DNA of 64,000 bases from IMG/VR virus record IMGVR_UViG_3300017780_002571, positions 38,277 to 102,276 of that record. The stretch is one strand, 5' to 3'. The translations under genes were made by a program, and so were the position numbers. This DNA is from a virus. Within the stretch, counting starts at the first letter, position 1; the number at the start of each line of letters is the position of its first letter. Of the stretch, positions 30,537-45,579 are shown in pieces. The notes below the pieces were generated by a model that did not search any database, was not told where the DNA came from, and worked only from the letters and a program-made list of their open reading frames with translations.

Positions 30537-32921
30537 TTAAAGGCCCTTCATCTTCTTGAGGTAAGCGAAGCTCAACACCCCCTCAGGATCAGGGATGCAG
30601 CACTCTGCGTCGGTGGTGAATTGTAACTGGTGATCCCATCCAAACATAGCCTTCAGAGGTAAGTTGTCCATGATGGCTTTTAGACGTTTAGCCCAGAGAA
30701 CCTCATCCCCCAGTGGCACGTAGAAAGCGCATGCGTCATGAGTCATCATGAACATATCTACCTGATCCCCGTACTCCTTGTCGATCAAGATCATAGCCAA
30801 CTGCATCATGTCTGACAAGCAGGACTGCACCGGACTGTTAACCGCTTGACGCTCAGCTTGTGCCTGTGCTTCCCGGTCACGAGAAGTGATCAGAGGTAGG
30901 TGCCGGACTCGGCCCAATGGGGAGCGGATAAACCCGGTCCTCTTGGCGATATTCTTGTACTCATTGTGCCACCCGGGAAGGCGGCTGTACAGGTCAAAGA
31001 ATGCTACCCGCTTTTGACCCGCCTCCGCGAGGGTGTACTTCACCCCATAGGTGGAGAATGCGTAGTCCATAAACCCAGTCTCACCCATGCCGTAGATCAA
31101 GCCGAAGTTGCCAGCCTTTCCACCAGACCGCAGCTCATCGCGGAGGTCGTCTGGTAGGAGCATGAAATCCTCATACTTGTAGCCGTTGATCTGGGCCGCC
31201 GTAATGGCGTGCAGGTCCGCCCCATTCTTGTAGGCCTGCAGCATCACAGGCTCCTCCGCCAAGCATGCCGCAATCTTCAACTCCCCTTGAGAGTAGTCAA
31301 TCTGCAGGATGGTCTTCCCGGGGGGCGGGACCATGGCGCGGCGAAGCTTCTTGCTCCACTTGGTATGTTTGGGCGTAGTCTGTACGGCTGGGTCCGACGC
31401 GGAGGTGCGTCCCGTGACGGTACCACTATCCTTGTTGCCTCCCTCAAAGCCACCGCGTGCTAAGCGGTAGGACGGATGAAACTTCCCATCGCTGCGAAGG
31501 TGCTTCAGGAACCCCACCACAAAAGTGCTCAAGGTCTTGCTGGCGCTGTTGCTCTCCTTGAGCAGGTCCACAAACGCCTTAGCCTCGGGCACGTCAGAGA
31601 ACGTTAGCAAGTGGTCAATCGCGGTGGAGGCCTCCTTAGCCTTCTCTGTGTACTGGGTGGCTTTTAGGTTCAAACCCGCTGGGGTGAACAGGAACTCCCG
31701 CATGAGCGCTGGACGGGATAGGCTGAAGTTGTCTTGGTACTTGATAGCCAGCTTGCGAGGGATCATCTTTTTCATGAGCCCATCAAGCCTAGCAATCTCA
31801 GTCTCCAACTCAGCCTGCAGTTTGTGGTAGTAGGGGATGTCAAGGCACACCCCGGTACGCTCCATCTTCTCGAATACCTTGGAGGATGGGTGGAGCACCT
31901 TGACGTAGAAATTGGCAAGCTGTCGATCTTTCACCAGCTCCTCTTTCATCACCTCCGCTACTTGGTAGGTGGCGTCGGTGTCTCCGCCAACGTAGGGCAG
32001 AAGCTTAGGCTTGGGCAGCTTTTCCAATTCACCCATGGTGATGCCCAGCCTTGCCAGCTCCTGCTTCATGTCGTCCTCATACCCGCCCATGGGGGTGTAC
32101 ACCTTCGCATGTAGCTTGAGGCTGTTGGACCTGTTCTCGTCCAGAAGGGACCCTACAAGCAGGGTGTCCATTTTCAGGTTGGTGACATCAATCTCCCACT
32201 TCCGAAATATCCAGCGAGAGTCGTACTTGAAGTTGGCTCCTCGGAGGGTGATCTTGGGGCTGGTAAACATCCAGTGAAGCTGATCCCATAAACCCTCCCA
32301 GTAGGACTGGGCTTCATTGTGCCAAGGGTCCTTAGATCGCGTAGGCACCTCCCCCTTGTCGAAGTACAACACGTCCGCCATGCCCTTGGAGTCGGTAAAG
32401 GAGCAGGCGATGATCCATGCATCAGGGTTGTACTCGTCTAGGCCCTTGGTCTCCAAGTCAGCAGTGACTACCACTGCCGTACCAGTGGCCTCGTACTTAG
32501 CGTCAATCCGTTCGATCATCTCATGCAGGGACTCCACGTACCGATACGTGCCTATCGGTGGCTTGGTGGAGCCTGTAGCGTGCATGCGGATAGCGAGTTG
32601 CACGTCCCATTGAATCTCTGGCAGGCGCTCGTACTCTTTCTGCACCATCACAGGGTCAAAGGTAACGAACACAGACCCCTTGGAGGCAGGGATAGCCCGA
32701 TCCCGGAGGCTGGTTATCGTGCGCCCTTTGGGGACTAGCCCTTGGCTGAGGAGAGTGGCTAGGGCCTTGCCTCCACATGCAAGTAAGACATCTCCGTCAG
32801 CCAAGAAAGGCATCTTGGAGATGTCCGAATCCACCCGGTGATCCACTTTCTGTCTTGCAACTATCGGCCCTATGACTTTGCGAATTAACTGCGCGTCCGC
32901 AGTTGTCCAGATGATTAGCAT
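30537..32921 (-). CDS. Family A DNA polymerase with 3'-5' exonuclease
   Basis: ADLETKG (exo I), ANFKYD, TVTGRTS, DYSQGELK (motif A), KAGNFGLIYG (motif B), THDA (motif C). Confidence 0.97.
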   Translation of the reverse strand: MLIIWTTADAQLIRKVIGPIVARQKVDHRVDSDISKMPFLADGDVLLACGGKALATLLSQGLVPKGRTITSLRDRAIPASKGSVFVTFDPVMVQKEYERLPEIQWDVQLAIRMHATGSTKPPIGTYRYVESLHEMIERIDAKYEATGTAVVVTADLETKGLDEYNPDAWIIACSFTDSKGMADVLYFDKGEVPTRSKDPWHNEAQSYWEGLWDQLHWMFTSPKITLRGANFKYDSRWIFRKWEIDVTNLKMDTLLVGSLLDENRSNSLKLHAKVYTPMGGYEDDMKQELARLGITMGELEKLPKPKLLPYVGGDTDATYQVAEVMKEELVKDRQLANFYVKVLHPSSKVFEKMERTGVCLDIPYYHKLQAELETEIARLDGLMKKMIPRKLAIKYQDNFSLSRPALMREFLFTPAGLNLKATQYTEKAKEASTAIDHLLTFSDVPEAKAFVDLLKESNSASKTLSTFVVGFLKHLRSDGKFHPSYRLARGGFEGGNKDSGTVTGRTSASDPAVQTTPKHTKWSKKLRRAMVPPPGKTILQIDYSQGELKIAACLAEEPVMLQAYKNGADLHAITAAQINGYKYEDFMLLPDDLRDELRSGGKAGNFGLIYGMGETGFMDYAFSTYGVKYTLAEAGQKRVAFFDLYSRLPGWHNEYKNIAKRTGFIRSPLGRVRHLPLITSRDREAQAQAERQAVNSPVQSCLSDMMQLAMILIDKEYGDQVDMFMMTHDACAFYVPLGDEVLWAKRLKAIMDNLPLKAMFGWDHQLQFTTDAECCIPDPEGVLSFAYLKKMKGL

Positions 32922-33342: not shown

Positions 33343-33545
33343 ACAATCCCCTTCTTTGTTTTCTTCAGAACAGCCTTGGTCATATAGATGCCATGGCACA
33401 TGACTCGAAAGGTCACTGAGGTTCCATCCGTGGCCTCCACTTGGAATAGCGCTGCCTCAGTGCACAGGCCCCCCAGAGGGCTGGGAGTCTCCACAATGTC
33501 GCCCACCGACAAAGCCAGCAGGGCGTTCAGATCAATAGTGCTCAT
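33333..33545 (-). CDS. Hypothetical protein
   Basis: TAATG-coupled 70-aa ORF. Confidence 0.6.
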   Translation of the reverse strand: MSTIDLNALLALSVGDIVETPSPLGGLCTEAALFQVEATDGTSVTFRVMCHGIYMTKAVLKKTKKGIVWM

Positions 33546-34339
33546 TACTGTCCCCCAATGAATTTGGAGATGTCTGCCACCTCTTTCACCCTATCAAACC
33601 CGATGCGACCTACCAAGGCCCCCAATGATTTGATCATGAGCCCAGTGTTCGACACATCGTAGTGGCCGGAGCTGTAGCCGCCCTTGGCATCCATGCCGAA
33701 GTCCTCTAGGGCCTCTTGGAATTCGTTAAGGTTAGGACCCTCTGCTCGAAGACTCAGCTTGGAGCCTTGGACCCGGGCCGCCACGTTCAGGCCGTCAAAC
33801 ACGGCCAACACGAAGTACACGGAGCCCCCGGTGGTCCCGGTCACTGGGGTGTACACCTTGGTGGCCTTGTACAAGGGGCACGGGTCCTGCTTAGAGAACT
33901 TCCCCGTTGGGGCCTTGGGTACGCTAGGGTAAATCCCTGTGAGGTTAGGCGAGGGAGTAGTCATCTGAACCTTGCCCGGTTTCGGAGTAGCGTGTGCTGG
34001 GTGTGGGGGAGGACTCCCGTTCTTGTTAACGGACAGGCCATCCCACATTGCCGTGTCTGCTCCTGCGATGGCTTTCTTCAGGGCGGACTCAAATTGGAAC
34101 TGCAAGGCTTCCTTGGAGGCGGGTCCAAGGGTCTTGGATTTTGCCAAGCTGATAGCGGAGCCCTTTACGGGCACTGAGCCGTAAACCAGTTCCCCCAACT
34201 TGATTACGAATGTGCCCGGGCTGGATTGGTCCACCGTGACCCCGGCGGTCTGAGCCGTCTGGATCAGGGAGGGATTCACCCCGAATAACGGGAGTAGGCT
34301 GTACCCGTAGTCTTTGTCTGCTTTGAATGAAATTGCCAT
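33545..34339 (-). CDS. Hypothetical protein (264 aa)
   Basis: Own promoter and CCAAGAAGGGG leader; two apparent domains joined by a Pro-rich linker. Confidence 0.7.
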   Translation of the reverse strand: MAISFKADKDYGYSLLPLFGVNPSLIQTAQTAGVTVDQSSPGTFVIKLGELVYGSVPVKGSAISLAKSKTLGPASKEALQFQFESALKKAIAGADTAMWDGLSVNKNGSPPPHPAHATPKPGKVQMTTPSPNLTGIYPSVPKAPTGKFSKQDPCPLYKATKVYTPVTGTTGGSVYFVLAVFDGLNVAARVQGSKLSLRAEGPNLNEFQEALEDFGMDAKGGYSSGHYDVSNTGLMIKSLGALVGRIGFDRVKEVADISKFIGGQ

Positions 34340-34341
34340 TT

Positions 34342-35070
34342 TTATACCCCTTCTTGGATTGAGTCAATTATATCATGTTTTTTAGGTTTGACAAATGTAA
34401 TTGACTCACCCCAGATGTTCAATGGATTCTTCGTCGCGTACGCGGTCAGCTTACCCTTAGGTATCGCCTGCGGCACCTTGTCCAGAGGGGAGGGGTTCGA
34501 CGCAGTAGGGTACCCCTTCGCCGCGTACCAGTCCTTGGACCCATGGCCCCCGGTGTACTCTTTGGCCCCGGATATCTCTTTGATGCCGTAGTGCGTATTC
34601 AGAAACTTCACCTGTGTGTGGGACTCGACTGCCTTCTCGCAGTAGTGCTTGCGTACATAGGTAATGGAATCCAGCTCCCCGGTCATGTGGGTGACAAGGG
34701 CGGCAAGCACGGTACCAGTACGACCATGACCACCGATGCAGCCGATATGGACCAACTTCAGTGCAGTTAATTGCACAGCTATCCATGCAATCATCTTTTT
34801 GAATTCCTCAGGGTCAGCAGGAACCCCCATGTCTGGGATGTAGAAAAGAATCTCCTCCACTTTCTGCTCGTTCCATGGGAACCGTGAAGCAGTCTCCCGC
34901 ATGCTGCGATCAAACCCAATGTAGATATCGGCATTGGACACCATTGGGCTGGAACAGGAACCTCCATAAATCAAGTACTCCCCGATAGGTAGAGGCTTGT
35001 GAGATTCGAAGCACCGTGCGTAGCCTGTAGTGCCAGCACGTTTCTGGGTATGGGTATGGTGTTTGCTCAT
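34342..35070 (-). CDS. Cys-based (PTP/DSP-like) phosphatase
   Basis: IPDMGVP acid loop, HIGCIGGHGRTG (CX5R), AVESHTQ. Confidence 0.9.
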   Translation of the reverse strand: MSKHHTHTQKRAGTTGYARCFESHKPLPIGEYLIYGGSCSSPMVSNADIYIGFDRSMRETASRFPWNEQKVEEILFYIPDMGVPADPEEFKKMIAWIAVQLTALKLVHIGCIGGHGRTGTVLAALVTHMTGELDSITYVRKHYCEKAVESHTQVKFLNTHYGIKEISGAKEYTGGHGSKDWYAAKGYPTASNPSPLDKVPQAIPKGKLTAYATKNPLNIWGESITFVKPKKHDIIDSIQEGV

Positions 35071-36173
35071 GCTGACCTCGTAACTTTCTTGATAAATTGG
35101 CCGGGAAAGATTTCCACATTGGCCTTCATTGCCTTCAGAGCCTCAACCGCCTTGAGCTCAGCCTTAGCCTCCTCTGCCGCTTTCTTCGCCTTGAACTTGG
35201 ACGGATACCCGTGCTTGGCTATCTGCTTGGTCTTTTGGTCCGGGTAGGTCTTCAGAGCTCCAAGCTCTTCCACGAGGAACCAGTCCACGTGGCCTATGAA
35301 CTCGTCTCCTAGAACTTTGTAGCAGTCAGCCCACACCTGTTTCACCTTAGGGTCCGAGCTAACGGCTGCTTGATTGTCTGCCACCAACTGAGGAATCTGA
35401 CCACTGCGCTGCACGTCCAGAATCTTGTAAATCTCGTGGCCGTAGGAGTCGAACAACATGCCCTTGTTGAAAATCGGGCCGTTGTTGTGGCACAGGGTGA
35501 AGCTGGTATCCATCATCATCTCTGCCGTGATCTTCCCATGCACGAAGTCTCTCAGCACATCCGCCACCGCGCCCCATGCTGGGCCTCCGTACCCGCCCGG
35601 GTACTTCCCTTGGTAGAAGATGTCCGACAGAAAGCTCGTGTACTTTCCGAGGGTTGTGATCGGAGCCTTGTCCTGAAACATCTGGGCTGCTTGCAACGAA
35701 CCGTTGCCCTTCAAAGTCTTGTGGAAGTTCGTGACCTCTACCCCGTACTTGTGAGTCATGGCCAGATAGGCGCTGCCAGACTTGTCGCAGTTGTCATGCC
35801 GAGATTCACGGGTACAGATCAGGAGCATGTAGGCAAACATCCGAGAGGCTCTGGCTGCCAGTTCCACGTGGTACGCCTCCATGATGGGCAGGTACTTGCC
35901 TAGGGGCTCATACACGTGAACCCGCTGGCGTACCAGAGTAGCGGCATGGTTCAGCATGTAGAACATCACTGCATCCTTCTCAGGGATGCCGCTAACTTTC
36001 TCAGTGTCTGTGCCTGCGTCTCCGATAGCCTCGTACAGGTTGGTCAGAGTTAGCAGCCGCTTAATCGCCGCCACCGCTGGCCCTAAAGGCAAGGCACTCA
36101 TGTCCCGATGTTGCAGGGCTGGCCGCATACCGACTTGGTACGCTAGCGTGTCCTGATTCAAACTTTGCTTCAT
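35067..36173 (-). CDS. Uncharacterised helical protein with GGYGGxxW and HNNG motifs
   Basis: 368 aa; ICTRESRH, YPGGYGGPAWGAVAD, LCHNNGPIFNKG look like catalytic motifs; ATGA-coupled to the phosphatase. Confidence 0.75.
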   Translation of the reverse strand: MKQSLNQDTLAYQVGMRPALQHRDMSALPLGPAVAAIKRLLTLTNLYEAIGDAGTDTEKVSGIPEKDAVMFYMLNHAATLVRQRVHVYEPLGKYLPIMEAYHVELAARASRMFAYMLLICTRESRHDNCDKSGSAYLAMTHKYGVEVTNFHKTLKGNGSLQAAQMFQDKAPITTLGKYTSFLSDIFYQGKYPGGYGGPAWGAVADVLRDFVHGKITAEMMMDTSFTLCHNNGPIFNKGMLFDSYGHEIYKILDVQRSGQIPQLVADNQAAVSSDPKVKQVWADCYKVLGDEFIGHVDWFLVEELGALKTYPDQKTKQIAKHGYPSKFKAKKAAEEAKAELKAVEALKAMKANVEIFPGQFIKKVTRSA

Positions 36174-36237
36174 TACCCCTCCTAGGTTTCGCTGCTTGTA
36201 TGAATTATATCATAAAAGTGAGTTTGTCAAATATAAA

Positions 36238-36263
36238 TTTAACCGCGTTTTAAGGCGGTTAAA
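36238..36263. terminator. Hairpin between phosphatase gene and next promoter
   Basis: TTTAACCGC-N8-GCGGTTAAA. Confidence 0.5.
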
Positions 36264-36282
36264 CCGTCCGGTAGGGGGTAGG

Positions 36283-36858
36283 TCAGGGCACGGCTTTGAA
36301 AGCGGCTTGTAGGCTGTGTAGGACCCACGAGACAGGCCCTAGGTACACAACCTTCTCTACAGTCTGCACTTGAGGCTGGTGGTAGTGACCCAACCACGCC
36401 AACATGGGACTGGTATCAAACCGAGCCACAAAGTTCTGTTGGCTTGCGGTCTCCACTGCATGCCCAAGGTAGTGAGCTCGAACGTACGCCACTGGGGTGT
36501 TTGGGACGGGCAAGTCCGCCCCAGTCGCCTCAGCGTACTGGATCATCACTTTGGCCATGCAAGCCATGTACAGCCCAGTACGACCAATTCCGCCCATGCA
36601 CCCAGCGTACACGTCATTACCCTTGCTCAATGCCTGCAGGCCGAACAGGATGCCTCGCTGCATATCGGACTGCTCTGGTATGGAGAAGTCTTCGGTGTCC
36701 ACCTTGAAGTCGTACGGGTGGTCAATCTCCGCTGCCATCTTCACACCCACAAGGCGTCGAGTGCCCTTCAGGTATCGGCGGAATGGTCCGCCGTAGATGT
36801 TGCCCTCAATGGTGCCAAAGGACACAGGGATGTTTTTTTCTAAAGTCATTTGTTGCAT
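36283..36858 (-). CDS. Second Cys-based (PTP/DSP-like) phosphatase
   Basis: TEDFSIP, AGCMGGIGRTG (CX5R), AVETASQQNFV. Confidence 0.9.
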   Translation of the reverse strand: MQQMTLEKNIPVSFGTIEGNIYGGPFRRYLKGTRRLVGVKMAAEIDHPYDFKVDTEDFSIPEQSDMQRGILFGLQALSKGNDVYAGCMGGIGRTGLYMACMAKVMIQYAEATGADLPVPNTPVAYVRAHYLGHAVETASQQNFVARFDTSPMLAWLGHYHQPQVQTVEKVVYLGPVSWVLHSLQAAFKAVP

Positions 36859-37121
36859 TACGCTCTCCTAGTTCTGGTTACAAAAAAGTCTGGTGCCTCG
36901 ATCTGCACACGTACCCGGTGCAGGTGCCCCTCTTGTGGGAACGGTGCTCGGAGCTGAATCCCCTTAGCTATCGTCACCCACGAATCTTCATTCACAGCAA
37001 AAAGCTGGTCATTCGCCCTCACCACAAAATCGGAGGAGCTGTGCACCGTGGTGACACAAACCTCAAGGTCTCCGACTTTGAATGTGGCCCCTTCTCCGAG
37101 GAGAGTTATGGTCAAGGCCAT
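36858..37121 (-). CDS. Small beta-rich protein, CsrA-like
   Basis: LTITLLGEGATFKVGDLEVCV and VRVQIEAP...VTR resemble the two ends of CsrA. Confidence 0.45.
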   Translation of the reverse strand: MALTITLLGEGATFKVGDLEVCVTTVHSSSDFVVRANDQLFAVNEDSWVTIAKGIQLRAPFPQEGHLHRVRVQIEAPDFFVTRTRRA

Positions 37122-39346
37122 TACGCCTCCTTAGTGGTTATGGCCTCGTACCAGTAGGCTGGTGTCGGCAATGGCTGGATATCTTTCTTCCCCTGCAGCT
37201 TCTCAATAGCCTGCTTGGCAACCTCGTACGCAGCCTTACTGCCGAACACTGATGCAATCACCGAGTCAGACACTAGCATGGGGCCTGTAGCATCCAACAG
37301 GTCTGCAAAGGTAGTCACGTGGCCTGAGACCTTGAACCCAGCAGCCTTCAGGGCGGCGGAGTGCTTAGGGTTGACCCCATCCCCGAGGTTCACAGTGGTA
37401 CGCTTGCGCACACTCAAATCCCAATTCAGCAGGGGGGCAACCTTTGTTTCAAGCAGCACAGCCCTGTACTGCTCCGACATCCCGAACATGATTTCAAAAG
37501 CCTTGTCCCCTCTGGAATAGTGACCCTCAGCGCCCACCAAATCGACAATGATCTGAGTAGCACTCGACTTGATCAAGCCAGCCCCTACCGCGTGCATGCG
37601 AGTGCTCAGGCTCACAGGATTTACGAACCTGTCCACCCCCTCAAGCAGAACGGTATCCACGTACACGGCATCAGAGGTGCATGCCGCGATCATCTTCTCG
37701 AATTCGGTAAGGGCCATGGAGGCTGAGAGCTCCAATCGGTCAGCGTTAGCCACTCCAGCGCCCCAGCTAATCACAGTCTTGACCACGGGAGAGGCTCCAC
37801 CTGCGATCAGAGGCACGTTAGTCTTCACCCACACATTTCCAGTTGCCCCGTCAATGGTGAGCATGTCACCCTCCTGAAAGGCTGGGCCGTTAGGGGCAAT
37901 GCAGGCAATCACCTTGGCCGTGGCATCTCCTATCTTCAAATCAGTAGCCCCAACCACACAGGACTTATTCATGCCCCGGGCCACCACGGCTGCATGAGAA
38001 GTCAAGCCCCCTGTCGCTGTCAGGATGCCCACACTGGCATTCATCCCGGCAATGTCATCCGGGTTGGTTTCCTTGGTAACCAGAATGCAAGGGACTTTGC
38101 AATTAACTGCACTCTCAGCGGTGAACATGACCACCCCCTTGACAATGCCGCCCCCGGCTGCAATGCCCTTCAGGTCTGGCGCCCCCTTGAATGTCGGGTT
38201 AATACTGTCCTGCATGACGCTGAACAACTGGGCCGCGCTCACCCTGCTTGCCGCTACTTCCTTGGAAATAAGGCCTTCATTGGCTAGGTCATAGGCTACT
38301 TGGAAAGCTGCCATGGCTGACCGCTTAGCGTTGCGAGTCTGCAAGATGTAGAGCTTCCCGTTCTCGACGGTGAACTCGATGTCCTGCATGTCCTTATAGC
38401 GCTTTTCGAGCTTAGCAACTACCATCCCCAAGTCGAAGGCTACGTCTGGATTCCACTTTTCCAAGGATTCAAGATTCTCAGGGGTGCGAATACCTGCCAC
38501 CACGTCCTCACCCTGCGCATTCACAAGGTACTCGCCAGTGATTACGTTCTCCCCAGTCGAGGGGTTCCGGCTGAACAAAACGCCTGTGGCGGACTGATCA
38601 TTCAGGTTACCGAACACCATGCTCTGCACAGTCACCGCAGTGCCCCAGCTATCCGGGATGTTGTTGATCTTGCGGTACTCAATGGCCCGGGGGTTGTTCC
38701 AAGACCGAAACACTGCCGCCACGGCCCCCATGACCTGCTCCATGGGAGTGTCTGGGAATTCAAAGCCTTGGGCGTTCACGATCTTCATATACCGGGTTAC
38801 CAGTCTGGACAACTGGTCCACGTTCAATTCACTGTCCAGAGTTACCCCCGCCTCATGACGCATGGTCTCAAGGGCATCCTCAAAAAACTGAAGGTCAACC
38901 CCGAGGGCCACGCTGGAATACATTTGGATCAGGCGACGGTAGGAGTCCAGAGCAGGGGCCTCGCCTAGTTGCTCTTTCCAGTATGGAAGAGTCTTGCTAG
39001 TCAGCCCCACGTTGAGAATCGTATCCATCATCCCGGGCATCGAGACCCGAGCCCCAGAGCGAACAGACATCAGGGGAGACTTCTTGCCCTTACCCACGAG
39101 GTACTTGATGCCGCTCTCTACGAGAGTCTGAATCTCGGTGTGGAACTCTGCAGCCTCGTCAACGTTGGCGTTGCATGCCACCTCGTACATAACTGAAGCT
39201 GCACATGGAATGGTAAAGCCCGGTGGCACTGGGAGCCCGAGGCTGGACATCTCTGCGAGATTGGCACCCTTACCGCCCAACACGTCCTTCATGGATGCAT
39301 TGCCGTCAGTAATGGAACCGAATTTGTAAATCTGGAGGCTTGACAT
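37121..39346 (-). CDS. PPDK-derived dikinase (ATP-grasp + phosphohistidine domains, no PEP/pyruvate barrel)
   Basis: LGGKGANLAEM, SVRSGARVSMPGMMDT, QGEDVVAGIRTP, DMQDIEFT, LQTR, GGLTSHAAVVARGM; last ~220 aa lack PPDK barrel motifs. Confidence 0.92.
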   Translation of the reverse strand: MSSLQIYKFGSITDGNASMKDVLGGKGANLAEMSSLGLPVPPGFTIPCAASVMYEVACNANVDEAAEFHTEIQTLVESGIKYLVGKGKKSPLMSVRSGARVSMPGMMDTILNVGLTSKTLPYWKEQLGEAPALDSYRRLIQMYSSVALGVDLQFFEDALETMRHEAGVTLDSELNVDQLSRLVTRYMKIVNAQGFEFPDTPMEQVMGAVAAVFRSWNNPRAIEYRKINNIPDSWGTAVTVQSMVFGNLNDQSATGVLFSRNPSTGENVITGEYLVNAQGEDVVAGIRTPENLESLEKWNPDVAFDLGMVVAKLEKRYKDMQDIEFTVENGKLYILQTRNAKRSAMAAFQVAYDLANEGLISKEVAASRVSAAQLFSVMQDSINPTFKGAPDLKGIAAGGGIVKGVVMFTAESAVNCKVPCILVTKETNPDDIAGMNASVGILTATGGLTSHAAVVARGMNKSCVVGATDLKIGDATAKVIACIAPNGPAFQEGDMLTIDGATGNVWVKTNVPLIAGGASPVVKTVISWGAGVANADRLELSASMALTEFEKMIAACTSDAVYVDTVLLEGVDRFVNPVSLSTRMHAVGAGLIKSSATQIIVDLVGAEGHYSRGDKAFEIMFGMSEQYRAVLLETKVAPLLNWDLSVRKRTTVNLGDGVNPKHSAALKAAGFKVSGHVTTFADLLDATGPMLVSDSVIASVFGSKAAYEVAKQAIEKLQGKKDIQPLPTPAYWYEAITTKEA

Positions 39347-39412
39347 ATGCGCCCTTTCTTGGCATTTCTTTCTATGATTGAATTATATCATAGATTTTTA
39401 GGGTTTGACTAA

Positions 39413-41863: not shown

Positions 41864-42485
41864 TTAAATTGCAGTTAATTGCACAGGTGCGAGGGCTTTG
41901 TAAACCCTCCCCTTCAACGCCGTTAGGGCGTCCCGTTCCGCTTCAAGCGCAGCGAGTTCTTTTGCATAGTGCTCGGGCTCTGGGCAAGTCACTATTTCGT
42001 TATGCACTTCGGCTATCTTGGTCCCCAAGGCGATGTAGACCATAAGCAGGTTCTTCCCGGTGAATCTCATGGCTGGCTCCTATGTTTGAACTCAAACGCC
42101 TCGACCAGTCCAGTGGGGCGCAGCTCCACATAGATTCGAGTCTTGCCATGGGAGACCACACTCACGAACTCCGCTTCATGGCCTGTCTTCTTTTTAACGT
42201 AGTCAGCCAGCGCCTCTTGCAGCTCCAATAGCGTCAGATCAACATCCTTTAGGATCATTTCAGCTCCTTGAGGTGGTACCACTGGTTGTCGTAGTACTTG
42301 GCATGGGTGATTCGACCCCCACCACTCAGCACATGGGCTGGAAGGTCGGGGCAGTAGGGTGACTTCTCGTCTACACCTTGAGCCAACAACTCTTCCCGGG
42401 TGGGCTTTCTGTCCCATGCATACACGAAGTACTCCCCATGCTGGTCGTAGTCGTTGTACTCCTCGGTCAAGGCCCAGATGGTCAT
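41864..42485 (-). CDS. Three small hypothetical genes (41864-42070, 42067-42258, 42255-42485)
   Basis: Chain of ATGA-coupled ORFs. Confidence 0.6.
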
Positions 42486-43480
42486 GCTACGTCTCCCATG
42501 TTGATTGGGTCAATCCACCCAAAGAAGGACGGAAAGCGTGGCAGAGTCTTGCCACCCAGCTTCTGAGACTTGACCCGCATGGGACGGCCAATCAGGCTGG
42601 CTCTGGTAAGCCACAAGGCCTTGAGCTCTTCTTGGGTAAGGAATCCGGGGCCGCAGTTGAATCGCATGCCGAAGTAGACGGACTCGGGTTCAATGCATTC
42701 AACCAAGAAGCCTCCGACCTCTTCAATGGGAACTTTGCCTGCTTTAGCAGTGCTACGCTTTGCTCTTCCCAGTTCGTCAAGTTTTTTCTCATTCGTGTTG
42801 GTCTTTCCTTGCTTGACTTCTCGAATCACGCAGTTGTAGTCAATGAACTCTTTCCACTTCATGGCTTGCCCACCGAGGATGGTGGACCGCCCAAACTTGT
42901 ACGCAGCATGCGGAGACTTGAGGATCAGCCCCTCGTACCCGAGGTCCAAGGCCTCCTTGTAGTACGCCTTCAACTCTTCCATGTTGTAGATCAGTTGCTG
43001 GTGCACCAGAACTATTCGCTGCTTCACAACAAAGGGCAGTGCGGTGATGTACTTCGACAGAAACTCATGCCGATCCTTCGCCACACAGGTACCCATGTTC
43101 CAGTGCTCGAAAACGTAGAACCTGAAGTCTGGCTCCCCGTCTGAGGACATCACCCCTGAGGTGGTTGTATTGAAGGTGGTCGTGAGATTAGGCTCCCCCA
43201 CAATCATCTCTCCGTCTAACCCTTGCAGGTACTGCCCGTGATCCCCTACCCACTTTTGGAGGTACCTGTTAGGCAGAGGCAGCATCTTTCGGCTCATGGC
43301 CGTACTGTTAAGAATCGGGCTACGAATGCCGTCCAATTTATAGGAGGCGTACACAGGGAATTTTATCTGATCTTCAGTTGGAATTTCAGATGCAGCTAGC
43401 ATGCATGAGAATTTACTGCCAGCTTCTACAGCACTTGGAGTGCTTGGCGTGGCTGCTATCTTTTTAATAGTTACTGGCAT
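42482..43480 (-). CDS. ATP-dependent DNA ligase
   Basis: YKLDGIR (motif I), LDGEM, FYVFE, YEGLILK, KWK, PRFP. Confidence 0.95.
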   Translation of the reverse strand: MPVTIKKIAATPSTPSAVEAGSKFSCMLAASEIPTEDQIKFPVYASYKLDGIRSPILNSTAMSRKMLPLPNRYLQKWVGDHGQYLQGLDGEMIVGEPNLTTTFNTTTSGVMSSDGEPDFRFYVFEHWNMGTCVAKDRHEFLSKYITALPFVVKQRIVLVHQQLIYNMEELKAYYKEALDLGYEGLILKSPHAAYKFGRSTILGGQAMKWKEFIDYNCVIREVKQGKTNTNEKKLDELGRAKRSTAKAGKVPIEEVGGFLVECIEPESVYFGMRFNCGPGFLTQEELKALWLTRASLIGRPMRVKSQKLGGKTLPRFPSFFGWIDPINMGDVA

Positions 43481-43546
43481 GGATACCCTTCTTGGTGGTC
43501 AGATTGAATTCAGCTAATGCATTATACATTAGATTTTGGGGGTTTG

Positions 43547-43825
43547 TCAAAATGGGCATTCTTGAGAGGAAACCCTTCGAGGGGGAGGGGCGTCCCACGC
43601 AATGTCCAGAGCAATGTCCTCTATCTCTTCGTCTGTGAGCTCGGAGCATCGCATAGCCCTATGCAGTCCGGCCATTGGGTGGGAGTCACAAAACTTGGTC
43701 CCGGGCCTGTGCGGATAAAGTAGGCCGCCACAGGTGCAGAGCTTGTGCCCCGACTTCTGGTAGTGGTCCTGCATGGCTGCATAGGTGGTGCGCCTAGTCC
43801 GACACTCTACGCACCTCAAGGTCAT
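43547..43825 (-). CDS. Small Cys/His-rich Zn-finger protein
   Basis: CVEC...H...H and CTCGG..YPHRPG..C. Confidence 0.65.
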   Translation of the reverse strand: MTLRCVECRTRRTTYAAMQDHYQKSGHKLCTCGGLLYPHRPGTKFCDSHPMAGLHRAMRCSELTDEEIEDIALDIAWDAPPPRRVSSQECPF

Positions 43826-44418
43826 GCACGCACCCGGTGGTGGTCGTCGGAGTGCCCAGATTTCCTGCCCGACAGCAGGGCTTTAATCTCCGACCACTCC
43901 AAGGGGCGGTACTCCCCTGTCAACTTGGCTATGTGATCCACCCCCACGTCGAGGATGCGAGTTTGAGCAAGCTCTCCCGGGTAGCGCATGGAACCATGGC
44001 AGTGCCCGTGCAGGTGGTAGGCCCCCCGGTGCTGTTGGTGCCAAGACATGAATGGGAAGTGACTCAAGACCACTCGATCCTCGTCCAGCTTCTGCTCATG
44101 GTAGGTCATCACTCGATTCCAGCCAATCACCTTGCTGGTGTCTTTGCCGTGGTCGTGGTTGCCCTTCACCAAGGTCTTCTGTCCATTCATGGCGCGGAGG
44201 ATCGCGGTGGTTCGGTCTGGCTGGTAGAAACTGAAGTCCCCAAGGATGAACGCGATGTCCTGAGGCTTCACGTACTTGTTCCATGTAGACACCAGTTCTT
44301 CATCTTGATGGTCCGAGTCCCGAAATGGGCGAGAACAATACTGAATCACATTGCTGTGGCCGTGGTGGAGGTCACTGCCAAACCAGTACTTCGCGGGGGT
44401 GTGTGGTTGTCGTTCCAT
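43822..44418 (-). CDS. Calcineurin-like metallophosphoesterase
   Basis: SDLHHGH, LGDFS, KGNHD, SHFP, HLHGHCH, DVGVD; start MERQ. Confidence 0.93.
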   Translation of the reverse strand: MERQPHTPAKYWFGSDLHHGHSNVIQYCSRPFRDSDHQDEELVSTWNKYVKPQDIAFILGDFSFYQPDRTTAILRAMNGQKTLVKGNHDHGKDTSKVIGWNRVMTYHEQKLDEDRVVLSHFPFMSWHQQHRGAYHLHGHCHGSMRYPGELAQTRILDVGVDHIAKLTGEYRPLEWSEIKALLSGRKSGHSDDHHRVRA

Positions 44419-44420
44419 AT

Positions 44421-45579
44421 CTACTTCTCTAAACTTTCTATCTCTTTTGCGGCTAGGTGAATAGCCTTGGGGCTGATCTTGGGAGTCACCAAGAGAACTG
44501 CATCCATGGCATCGTCCACGATTAGTGCGTAATCTGTGCGCCAACGAAACTCATCATCAGCTACCTTAGTCAGCAGAAACAAAGCCTCATCCATGAGGTT
44601 CACGAACTCAGTAACCTTGTCTACCCTGCAGGCCAGCAAGGTAATGGCTAAGAGGCGGGATATCTCTTGGACTACGGACTGAATCTGCTCACCCTCTTGC
44701 GTGAAAAACAGCTTGATCTTCACGTCCACCATGCTCTTCATCAGCTTCTGTCTGGCGATGGCCTTTGCTATAGGATTCATAGCTACGTTCTTACTCACCG
44801 TGCGGATTCCGAGAGGATTTACCATGGTCTCGCCCTCACGTGCCGTTCAGCTACAAACCCGGGAATGGGCTGATCGTCTCCCGTCTGCAGAGCTAGGCAA
44901 GCAACCGTGGCTAATGACCTATCTTTGTAGCAGTACCGATGCCCCCATCCGTTCCAATCAAGGTCCACTACAAGACCTCGGGTGAACATGAGGTCAATGG
45001 TCCCGATGATGGTCCCGTCAGGCAGGACTCGAAGGTCCTTGTAGTGGCTGTCCTTGAGATGCTCCAACATCTCCGCCAACGCAAGGAGCGGTTCCGAGGG
45101 CTCACTCTTTTGAGTGTTCATGGTTACTTTCAAAGGTGCAAAGAAGGGACAACCCAGTCTATGGGCTCGATAGACTCCCCGCGATTCAGATGGTGCGGGT
45201 GCCCATACCGATCTACGACCATGATGGATTCGTCATGCTGAGTGAACATGCACTGGAAGTGCCGCTTATCGCTGTCAAGTGGACGAAGGCGCTTAGGCCA
45301 CGCCAGCTTCCATTCCTCAGTCTCGAACATATCCTGAGTCAGGATGGCCCCCATGTAAACCAGTGGCTGGTGGTCATGCAGGTTCTCGTAGGCCCTGCCC
45401 CAACCACCATACGCCTTGCAGTACTGGTAGGCGTAAGCCTCTCCAGCTAGGGCGGCCCCCAGATCAAAGCTGTACGCTGGGATAACTAGGTTACGGTTGG
45501 TTCCGCGTCTGCTTTTGGGCAATAGCAGGTACACAACATCTATGGACTGAGAGCTCATACTTGGCTTAGAGATTGACAT
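44421..45579 (-). CDS. Three hypothetical genes (44421-44825, 44819-45133, 45130-45579)
   Basis: Contiguous, overlapping minus-strand ORFs. Confidence 0.6.

Follow-up and report, generated by a model that had tools for sequence, protein, structure and literature searches.

What does a gene that reads as a pyruvate phosphate dikinase (PPDK) do when it stands, together with two phosphatase genes, beside the family A DNA polymerase (PolA) of a virus? We addressed this question in a 64,000-nt window (the whole stretch of DNA analysed; all coordinates below are window positions) of the 102,276-nt virus genome IMGVR_UViG_3300017780_002571, in which a module of five co-directional minus-strand open reading frames (ORFs) fills positions 34342-39346. 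The reading that we favour, with a probability of about 0.45, is that the module is a split phospho-histidine dikinase system, in which phosphate would be handed to a substrate held by a separate 368-aa protein (p368) and two phosphatases would act as erasers. An earlier note on this DNA, made from the letters alone and called here the original prediction, had regarded the dikinase as substrate-less and as liable to be miscalled as a metabolic enzyme. The five genes, in the order in which they are read, are as follows.

37121-39346, minus strand: dikinase gene, 741 aa
36858-37121, minus strand: 87-aa small protein, CsrA-like by eye, with TAATG coupling at both ends
36283-36858, minus strand: PTP1, dual-specificity-type cysteine phosphatase (CMGGIGRTG), 191 aa; Tc-R-P E 1.3e-5, phrog_17568 E 1.7e-30
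35067-36173, minus strand: p368, predicted all-helical, enzyme-like protein, 368 aa, with the motifs FYMxNH, CTRESRH, YGGPAW, CHNNGPIFNKG and LDVQRSGQ
34342-35070, minus strand: PTP2, dual-specificity-type cysteine phosphatase (HIGCIGGHGRTG), 242 aa, ATGA-coupled to p368

A Pfam scan of the 741-aa protein returned matches to PPDK_N (PF01326) and to the phosphoenolpyruvate (PEP)-utilizers mobile domain (PF00391) alone, and its three parts lie at the following positions.

38195-39346, minus strand: dikinase residues 1-384, PPDK-type ATP-grasp domain (PF01326, E 3.6e-49)
37814-38194, minus strand: dikinase residues 385-511, swivelling phospho-histidine domain with His451 in GGLTSHAAV (PF00391, E 3.7e-22)
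37121-37813, minus strand: dikinase residues 512-741 plus stop codon, TIM-barrel-like C-terminal domain (AlphaFold (AF2) model)

Relative to the solved PPDKs 1KBL and 9PZL, the dikinase exhibited ~50% identity over residues 6-511 (E ~1e-138), and these alignments stopped at residues 511-532. The nucleotide-binding motifs and the catalytic His (GGLTSHAA, His451) are kept and an ANAD remnant follows the swivel domain, both as had been claimed, and GGKGxxL, VRSGA and GGxTSHAAV were retained in most of 72 lineage members. The phage enzyme thus resembles PPDK (EC 2.7.9.1; TIGR01828; C. symbiosum 1KBL/1DIK, 9PZL, Flaveria 5JVN) in its ATP-grasp and swivel domains with the catalytic His in GGxTSH, and it shares this two-domain ATP-to-His engine with glucan-water dikinase, rifampicin phosphotransferase (NF041857), PEP synthase and PRK05878 proteins. 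In glucan-water dikinase and rifampicin phosphotransferase the same two domains serve an acceptor other than pyruvate. The score against the PPDK equivalog TIGR01828 was 586.9 bits (cut-off 843.45), over model positions 4-525 of 865, and there were weak NCBIfam matches to alternative-acceptor families, of which PRK05878 (NF004531) gave 412 bits (cut-off 456). Searches of the dikinase with Pfam and NCBIfam revealed neither a carbohydrate-binding nor a rifampicin-binding domain; unlike in glucan-water dikinase and rifampicin phosphotransferase, the acceptor part of the phage system appears to be a separate gene product and not a fused domain.

The C-terminal part of the dikinase occupies the position of the pyruvate barrel, and it was here that the protein departed from PPDK. 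No match to PEP-utilizers_C (PF02896) was found in the 741-aa protein at E ≤ 0.1 in Pfam, and the motifs GLxRTEHM, GTNDLTQ and CGEH, all visible in the two true PPDKs compared, were absent, in agreement with the original prediction. A full HMMER scan of 1.84e9 representatives recovered only 26 relatives of the C-terminal 230 residues, and all 26 matches lay at the C-terminal end of their host protein; most of these proteins have ~620-840 aa and one has 1159 aa, the remaining, shorter entries being presumably incomplete. With these 26 relatives as the alignment, the AF2 model of the domain had a predicted local distance difference test score (pLDDT) of 88.9 and a regular beta/alpha alternation, and all of its fold matches were TIM barrels. 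The top Foldseek rows belonged to the PEP/pyruvate superfamily (KPHMT, citramalyl-CoA lyase, phosphonomutase, PA4872; E 2.5e-3 to 2e-2), and VIA-align gave best Z scores of 9.4-9.5, with PEP synthase 9dae at Z 9.0 and PPDK 5jvn at Z 8.2; the last two gave the longest alignments (204 residues each), yet were not set apart from other barrels. Comparison with true PPDK barrels by hhalign was not significant (E 0.13, probability 0.45%, with two true PPDK sequences as template). Iterated hidden Markov models (HMMs) showed the domain to be homologous in 76 of 83 lineage tails, and the sole conserved residue among 66 unique tails was D602 (88%).

Compared to PPDK, the phage protein has a TIM-barrel-like domain in the equivalent C-terminal position, but one that is ~110 residues shorter and without the PEP/pyruvate motifs (Arg, Arg, Glu, Asp and Cys), and its sequence bears no detectable resemblance to that of the true barrel. 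The earlier description of ~220 unrelated residues is right for the sequence but not for the fold, since the last 230 residues model as a TIM-barrel-like domain, of the fold class of the PEP barrel though without its PEP/pyruvate motifs; similarly, "substrate-less" fits the chemistry, as the catalytic motifs are gone, but not the architecture, in which a decayed TIM-barrel-like domain is homologous lineage-wide. To judge from the model, this domain is probably the ancestral PEP/pyruvate barrel, shrunk and stripped of its active site, and it is more likely to be a scaffold or docking surface than an active site because it contains almost no conserved residues.

These results bear on the function under which the gene has been published, namely the interconversion of pyruvate and PEP by a genuine auxiliary metabolic PPDK. 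Phage papers and GenBank label the gene PPDK, just as the original prediction had anticipated, and the high identity in the first 510 residues and the barrel-like C-terminal domain are consistent with that label. However, the protein falls below the TIGR01828 equivalog cut-off and has no PEP-utilizers_C match, the catalytic motifs of true PPDKs are missing, the profile comparison with true barrels was not significant, and almost no barrel residue is conserved, all of which makes pyruvate-PEP interconversion scarcely credible. The conserved residues and family scores instead support the view that the dikinase of the module is not a metabolic PPDK.

If the acceptor is not pyruvate, p368 is the member of the module most suited to providing one. 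We collected 710 homologues of p368, none with a Pfam domain, and the protein itself had no match in Pfam, NCBIfam, PADLOC, PDB sequences or the ESM Atlas, while a BFVD search returned unnamed family members only. Its AF2 model is all-helical (pLDDT 92.2) and matched no fold in the PDB (Foldseek best E 0.38, VIA-wide best Z 4.2). Within an alignment of 84 sequences, 16 residues were invariant, among them Y72, Y115, R122, E123, R125, H126, G196, G197, W200, D222, H229, N230, N236, K237 and Q255, with D253 (98%) and E218 (95%) nearly so; the YGGPAW and CHNNG motifs were invariant family-wide. The family has a median isoelectric point (pI) of 8.7 and a Lys-rich tail. By its alignment, p368 is the sole protein of the module with a dense, catalytic-looking constellation of invariant polar residues, and this cluster of Arg, Lys, His, Asp, Glu, Trp and Tyr looks like a site for a phosphate plus a polar ligand. 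The proposal that the 368-aa protein acts as the acceptor-binding partner in trans is thus reasonable, because no other member carries such a constellation. A di-iron site built from three His and three carboxylates was considered and dropped, as H76 was not invariant across the 84 sequences. Relatives of p368 are annotated as "putative membrane protein".

The two CX5R phosphatases that had been recognised by their motifs both proved to be residue-complete. In PTP1, D57, C87, R93, T94, G95, R127, E136, T137 and Q140 were invariant (65 sequences), and in PTP2, D80, C111, R117 and Q153 were conserved together with C20, H24 and C144 (71 sequences), such that both paralogues keep the general-acid Asp, the CX5R-TG signature and the water-positioning Gln without exception. 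PTP2 aligned with SsoPTP-type phosphatases (E 8e-6) through its IPDxGVP acid loop, P-loop and Q motif. Pfam scores for both proteins were below the gathering cut-off of 27 bits (Tc-R-P 26.1 for PTP1 and 21.5 for PTP2; PTP-SAK 15.0 and 21.9, respectively), which is in keeping with borderline members of a divergent subfamily of cysteine phosphatases. Like the small atypical dual-specificity phosphatases (SsoPTP 2I6I, DUSP23, PTPMT1), PTP2 has the D-loop, the HCxGGxGRTG P-loop and the Q motif, and PTP1 has the same invariant residues; unlike them, PTP2 carries an N-terminal Cys/His pair and a ~80-residue extension. Because the acid Asp, the Cys, the Arg, the Thr-Gly pair and the Gln are invariant, PTP1 and PTP2 look like working hydrolases and not relays.

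Annotation errors are propagating across the genes of the module. The PHROG that contains the phosphatase (phrog_17568) is misnamed "thymidylate synthase", and PTP2 is misannotated as "pyruvate decarboxylase" in Vibrio phage J26 and as "thymidylate synthase" in DLP3.

The order of the genes was fixed across relatives: dikinase, small protein(s), PTP1, p368, PTP2, (p264), PolA and portal. This order was kept in 80 IMG/VR loci with enough flank, in 3 isolates (Rhizobium, Vibrio, Stenotrophomonas) and in 10 loci from prophages or metagenome-assembled genomes, and PolA was downstream of PTP2 in all loci with enough flank. The co-occurrence on which the original prediction leaned is accordingly rigid, with the five genes together in 83 phage loci (the 80 from IMG/VR and the 3 isolates) plus prophages. 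The p368 gene was present in 40 phage records, with hosts (Vibrio, Stenotrophomonas, Rhizobium, Rhodobacter) that are those of the isolates with the phage-type dikinase, and all occurrences belonged to one old lineage of ~80-115 kb siphophages. The two genes that follow the module in the window are given below.

33545-34339, minus strand: p264, conserved two-domain protein with a Pro-rich linker, between PTP2 and PolA
30537-32921, minus strand: PolA, family A DNA polymerase (PF00476, E 5.5e-60), downstream neighbour of the module

The block occurs in no fewer than 40 sequenced phage records, most of them from Vibrio phages studied for aquaculture biocontrol, and in hundreds of metagenomic relatives. 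The genome papers of these Vibrio phages repeat the PPDK/glycolytic auxiliary metabolic gene label and nothing more, and published ecological conclusions rest on it, whereas the block appears to be a conserved multi-protein phosphotransfer system beside the replicative polymerase. Other "phage" records with a PPDK (labelled "Enterococcus/Listeria phage" or faecal "Bacteriophage sp.") were set aside: the two that were inspected, OR846604.1 and MT835511.1, each encode a full-length true PPDK but lack the cassette, and they are probably bacterial contigs.

In the reading that we favour, the 741-aa enzyme would load the beta-phosphate of ATP (probably also using inorganic phosphate, as PPDK does) onto His451, and the former pyruvate barrel, which in both sequence and model has lost its catalytic residues, would persist as a scaffold. 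From the swivel domain the phosphate would then reach, in trans, a substrate held by p368, PTP1 and PTP2 would hydrolyse the product or mis-phosphorylated forms to give a write/erase cycle, and the small CsrA-like or Zn-ribbon protein, of a nucleic-acid-binder type, may serve as an adaptor or regulator. We base the carrier and eraser steps on conserved residues; that phosphate is handed on to p368, and what kind of target receives it, we infer. With less assurance, we suggest as the likeliest target a hydroxyl of some nucleotide-derived molecule or nucleic-acid end at the time of replication; a genome-wide base modification is unlikely. This kind of target is favoured because the block is always upstream of PolA and on the same strand, and because most of the partner proteins are basic; the partners are probably co-transcribed with PolA. 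A bolder form of this mechanism is possible but doubtful: p368 would itself be the enzyme, taking phosphate from the PPDK-derived carrier and phosphorylating a nucleotide-derived molecule or nucleic-acid end during replication, with the phosphatases reversing the reaction. If true, this undescribed writer/eraser would constitute a new class of nucleic-acid or nucleotide chemistry in phages, distributed across a large siphophage lineage. Knowing the substrate would reveal a new use for the PPDK engine and give a large orphan family a function.

Several observations weigh against the split dikinase system as we have drawn it. Co-occurrence is strong but not independent, and the linkage may in part be inherited synteny because all occurrences fall in one phage lineage. 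The barrel could still carry a lineage-variable active site. A fused dikinase-p368 form was not found among proteins of 696-2000 aa, although this is a weak negative, and the water-activating Gln of the phosphatases fits erasers but is uninformative on their substrate. Finally, the neighbourhood of dNMP kinase, ThyX and MazG is limited to the closest relatives of the window, so that the lineage-wide link is to PolA only: all four neighbours are present in the window, but among the other loci dNMP kinase was found in L004-L006, L010 and L011, ThyX in L004 and L006-L008, and MazG in none.

The 87-aa protein encoded between the dikinase and PTP1 raises another possibility, that of a protein phospho-switch in which the dikinase would phosphorylate the small CsrA-like or Zn-ribbon protein, or p368 on an invariant His or Tyr, and the phosphatases would reset it, the output being RNA binding/translation or a step of replication or packaging. 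Writer, small protein and eraser are coupled via TAATG overlaps, and the small ORF is conserved in its position within the module, an iterated HMM linking the positional homologues in 68 of 75 sequences (74 loci and the window's own). The description of this gene as CsrA-like stands in part. By eye, the protein resembles CsrA in both halves, with an insertion between them, and positional counterparts gave weak PF02599 matches in three relatives (KarBoss, E 0.01; Summit, E 0.2; RHph_TM16, E 0.17), but the 87-aa protein itself had no CsrA (PF02599) match at E ≤ 10. Dual-specificity phosphatases classically target proteins, p368 offers the invariant residues H126, H229, Y72 and Y115, and the phosphotransferase system (PTS), in which a His-swivel enzyme passes its phosphate on to a small carrier protein, provides a precedent. 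However, the small protein is poorly conserved, no phosphorylatable residue is universal among its lineage homologues, and the common TH..GNRR motif is missing from the window's copy; in addition, the roughly 17 invariant polar residues of p368 suit an enzyme better than a passive acceptor. We therefore consider a phospho-switch, with any of these outputs, rather unlikely.

In Stenotrophomonas relatives (Summit L003:10981-12105; DLP3 gp136-138), three small ORFs take the place of the single 87-aa gene, and these encode a Lar-like Zn-ribbon protein (E 0.0037), a CsrA-like protein and a DnaJ-type CxxCxGxG finger protein.

The combination of a PPDK-type dikinase with two dual-specificity-fold phosphatases also recalls the plant starch cycle (GWD/PWD writers; SEX4 and LSF2 erasers) and its write/erase logic, which is, to our knowledge, the only established natural pairing of this kind. 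A glycan phosphorylation cycle acting on host glycogen or an envelope polysaccharide, in the manner of glucan-water dikinase with SEX4/LSF2, could be built from the same parts. Unlike the plant system, however, the phage genes sit in a replication-gene context, include p368 and a small CsrA-like protein as extra members and have no glycan-binding modules: no carbohydrate-binding module or glycan-related Pfam match was found in the five proteins at E ≤ 0.1, and the link is to PolA and not to sugar genes (distant in some relatives). A glycan target is thus very improbable.

Proximity to PolA would also suit post-replicative DNA modification, in which the dikinase would phosphorylate a base hydroxyl (e.g. 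hydroxymethyl) as a leaving group, p368 would carry out the substitution, and the phosphatases would revert unused sites. The module is always beside PolA, its partner proteins are basic, and the chemistry has a precedent in thymidine hypermodification, which employs 5-HMUDK and an amino-acid:DNA transferase (PMC8989533). Like that pathway (5-HMUDK + aGPT-Pplase/AADT), the module would combine hydroxyl phosphorylation by replication-associated genes with a subsequent all-helical enzyme; the differences are the kinase class (5-HMUDK is a P-loop kinase), the absence of a detectable relation between p368 and AADT, the lack of any hydroxymethylase or dioxygenase among the genes found, and the avoidance of restriction sites described below. 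None of 66 p368 family members matched aGPT-Pplase (Pfam, E ≤ 10), and no helix-hairpin-helix glycosylase was among the fold matches, although absence from such a list is no exclusion. The genome had no TGT/DpdA and no Tet/JBP match, and ThyX implies ordinary dTMP. In the literature, no paper joins phage, dikinase and hypermodification, and none treats the module as a system.

Support for modification had come from a relative, DLP3, the DNA of which was reported to be uncut by 15 enzymes, from which modification was inferred (PMC7326821). When we examined the DLP3 genome (MT110073.1), 10 of these 15 enzymes had no site at all, and sites were present for SmaI (68), ClaI (18), EcoRI (7), NdeI (4) and XbaI (1). 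Most of the resistance is therefore explained by missing sites, which corrects the published inference, while the failure of the five enzymes that do have sites still needs explanation and counts in favour of modification.

The missing sites were part of a general pattern. Over the whole genome of the window, 6-bp palindromes had a median observed/expected ratio of 0.64 and 18 of 64 were absent; in DLP3 the median was 0.45, with 25 absent, and in 78 pooled cassette loci it was 0.615, compared with 1.01 for non-palindromes. Whole-genome counts were 0 for CAGCTG (45 expected), GGGCCC (27 expected) and CTCGAG (18.5 expected), and GATC was depleted (307 vs 411 expected); CCCGGG, CTGCAG and GAATTC were not avoided. 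Palindrome avoidance marks phages whose DNA type II enzymes can reach; fully substituted phages such as T4 are not known to show it. Because palindromes are avoided and 10 of the 15 DLP3 enzymes are siteless, the case for blanket hypermodification is weakened, and blanket protection of phage DNA against restriction enzymes by the module is unlikely. Overall, with other candidate modification genes elsewhere in these genomes, we regard DNA modification by the module as distinctly unlikely. The original prediction had also taken the position of the module as a hint of nucleotide or DNA chemistry; the neighbours are indeed there, but dNMP kinase, ThyX and MazG are a feature of a sub-clade and the support from DLP3 is mostly lost.

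In the genome of the window, such candidate genes lie in the left arm, outside the window, in a cluster at L097:3555-10420 (G000:C1:3552-10420). This cluster comprises two ParB-like genes (513 and 263 aa) together with genes for an AsnB/QueC-like PP-loop protein (443 aa), a SWIM zinc-finger protein (288 aa) and a radical SAM protein (261 aa). Beside it stands an ORF of 630 aa, probably encoding the large terminase. This ParB/PP-loop/SWIM/radical SAM cluster is possibly a separate DNA-modification or partition module, and its genes would be alternative suspects for any residual modification.

Within the window, the five genes form two translationally coupled units, as had been claimed, with stop/start overlaps of TAATG between the dikinase and 87-aa genes, TAATG between the 87-aa gene and PTP1, and ATGA between p368 and PTP2. 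A hairpin and a near-consensus promoter occupy the 110-nt gap that separates the units, and the overlapping codons together with these elements indicate that the two coupled units are real. The regulatory elements read from the sequence are as follows.

39382-39411, minus strand: promoter-like site TAGTCA-18-TATAAT with TG, upstream of the dikinase gene; 10/12 consensus matches, by pattern match only
36236-36265, minus strand: terminator-like hairpin between the two units, of putative function
36204-36230, minus strand: promoter-like TTGACA-15 nt-TGaTATAAT directly before p368, of putative function

The element at 36204-36230 combines perfect -35 and extended -10 hexamers with a 15-nt spacer; our consensus promoter scan demands a spacer of 16-18 nt and so passed over this site.

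A search of PADLOC-DB, which covers defence and candidate systems, gave no match for seven module proteins at E ≤ 0.1. The p264 protein (pI 9.2) was found in most lineage loci by tblastn and had no match in Pfam, NCBIfam, PADLOC or the PDB; the ESM Atlas returned for it a resemblance of residues 130-247 to DHHA1 domains with low template-modelling scores, and nothing else. A few kb upstream of the module, at 42482-44544 on the minus strand, the window encodes an ATP-dependent DNA ligase (332 aa) and a phrog_547 phosphoesterase (240 aa), end-healing-type enzymes that could be linked to a nucleic-acid-end substrate.

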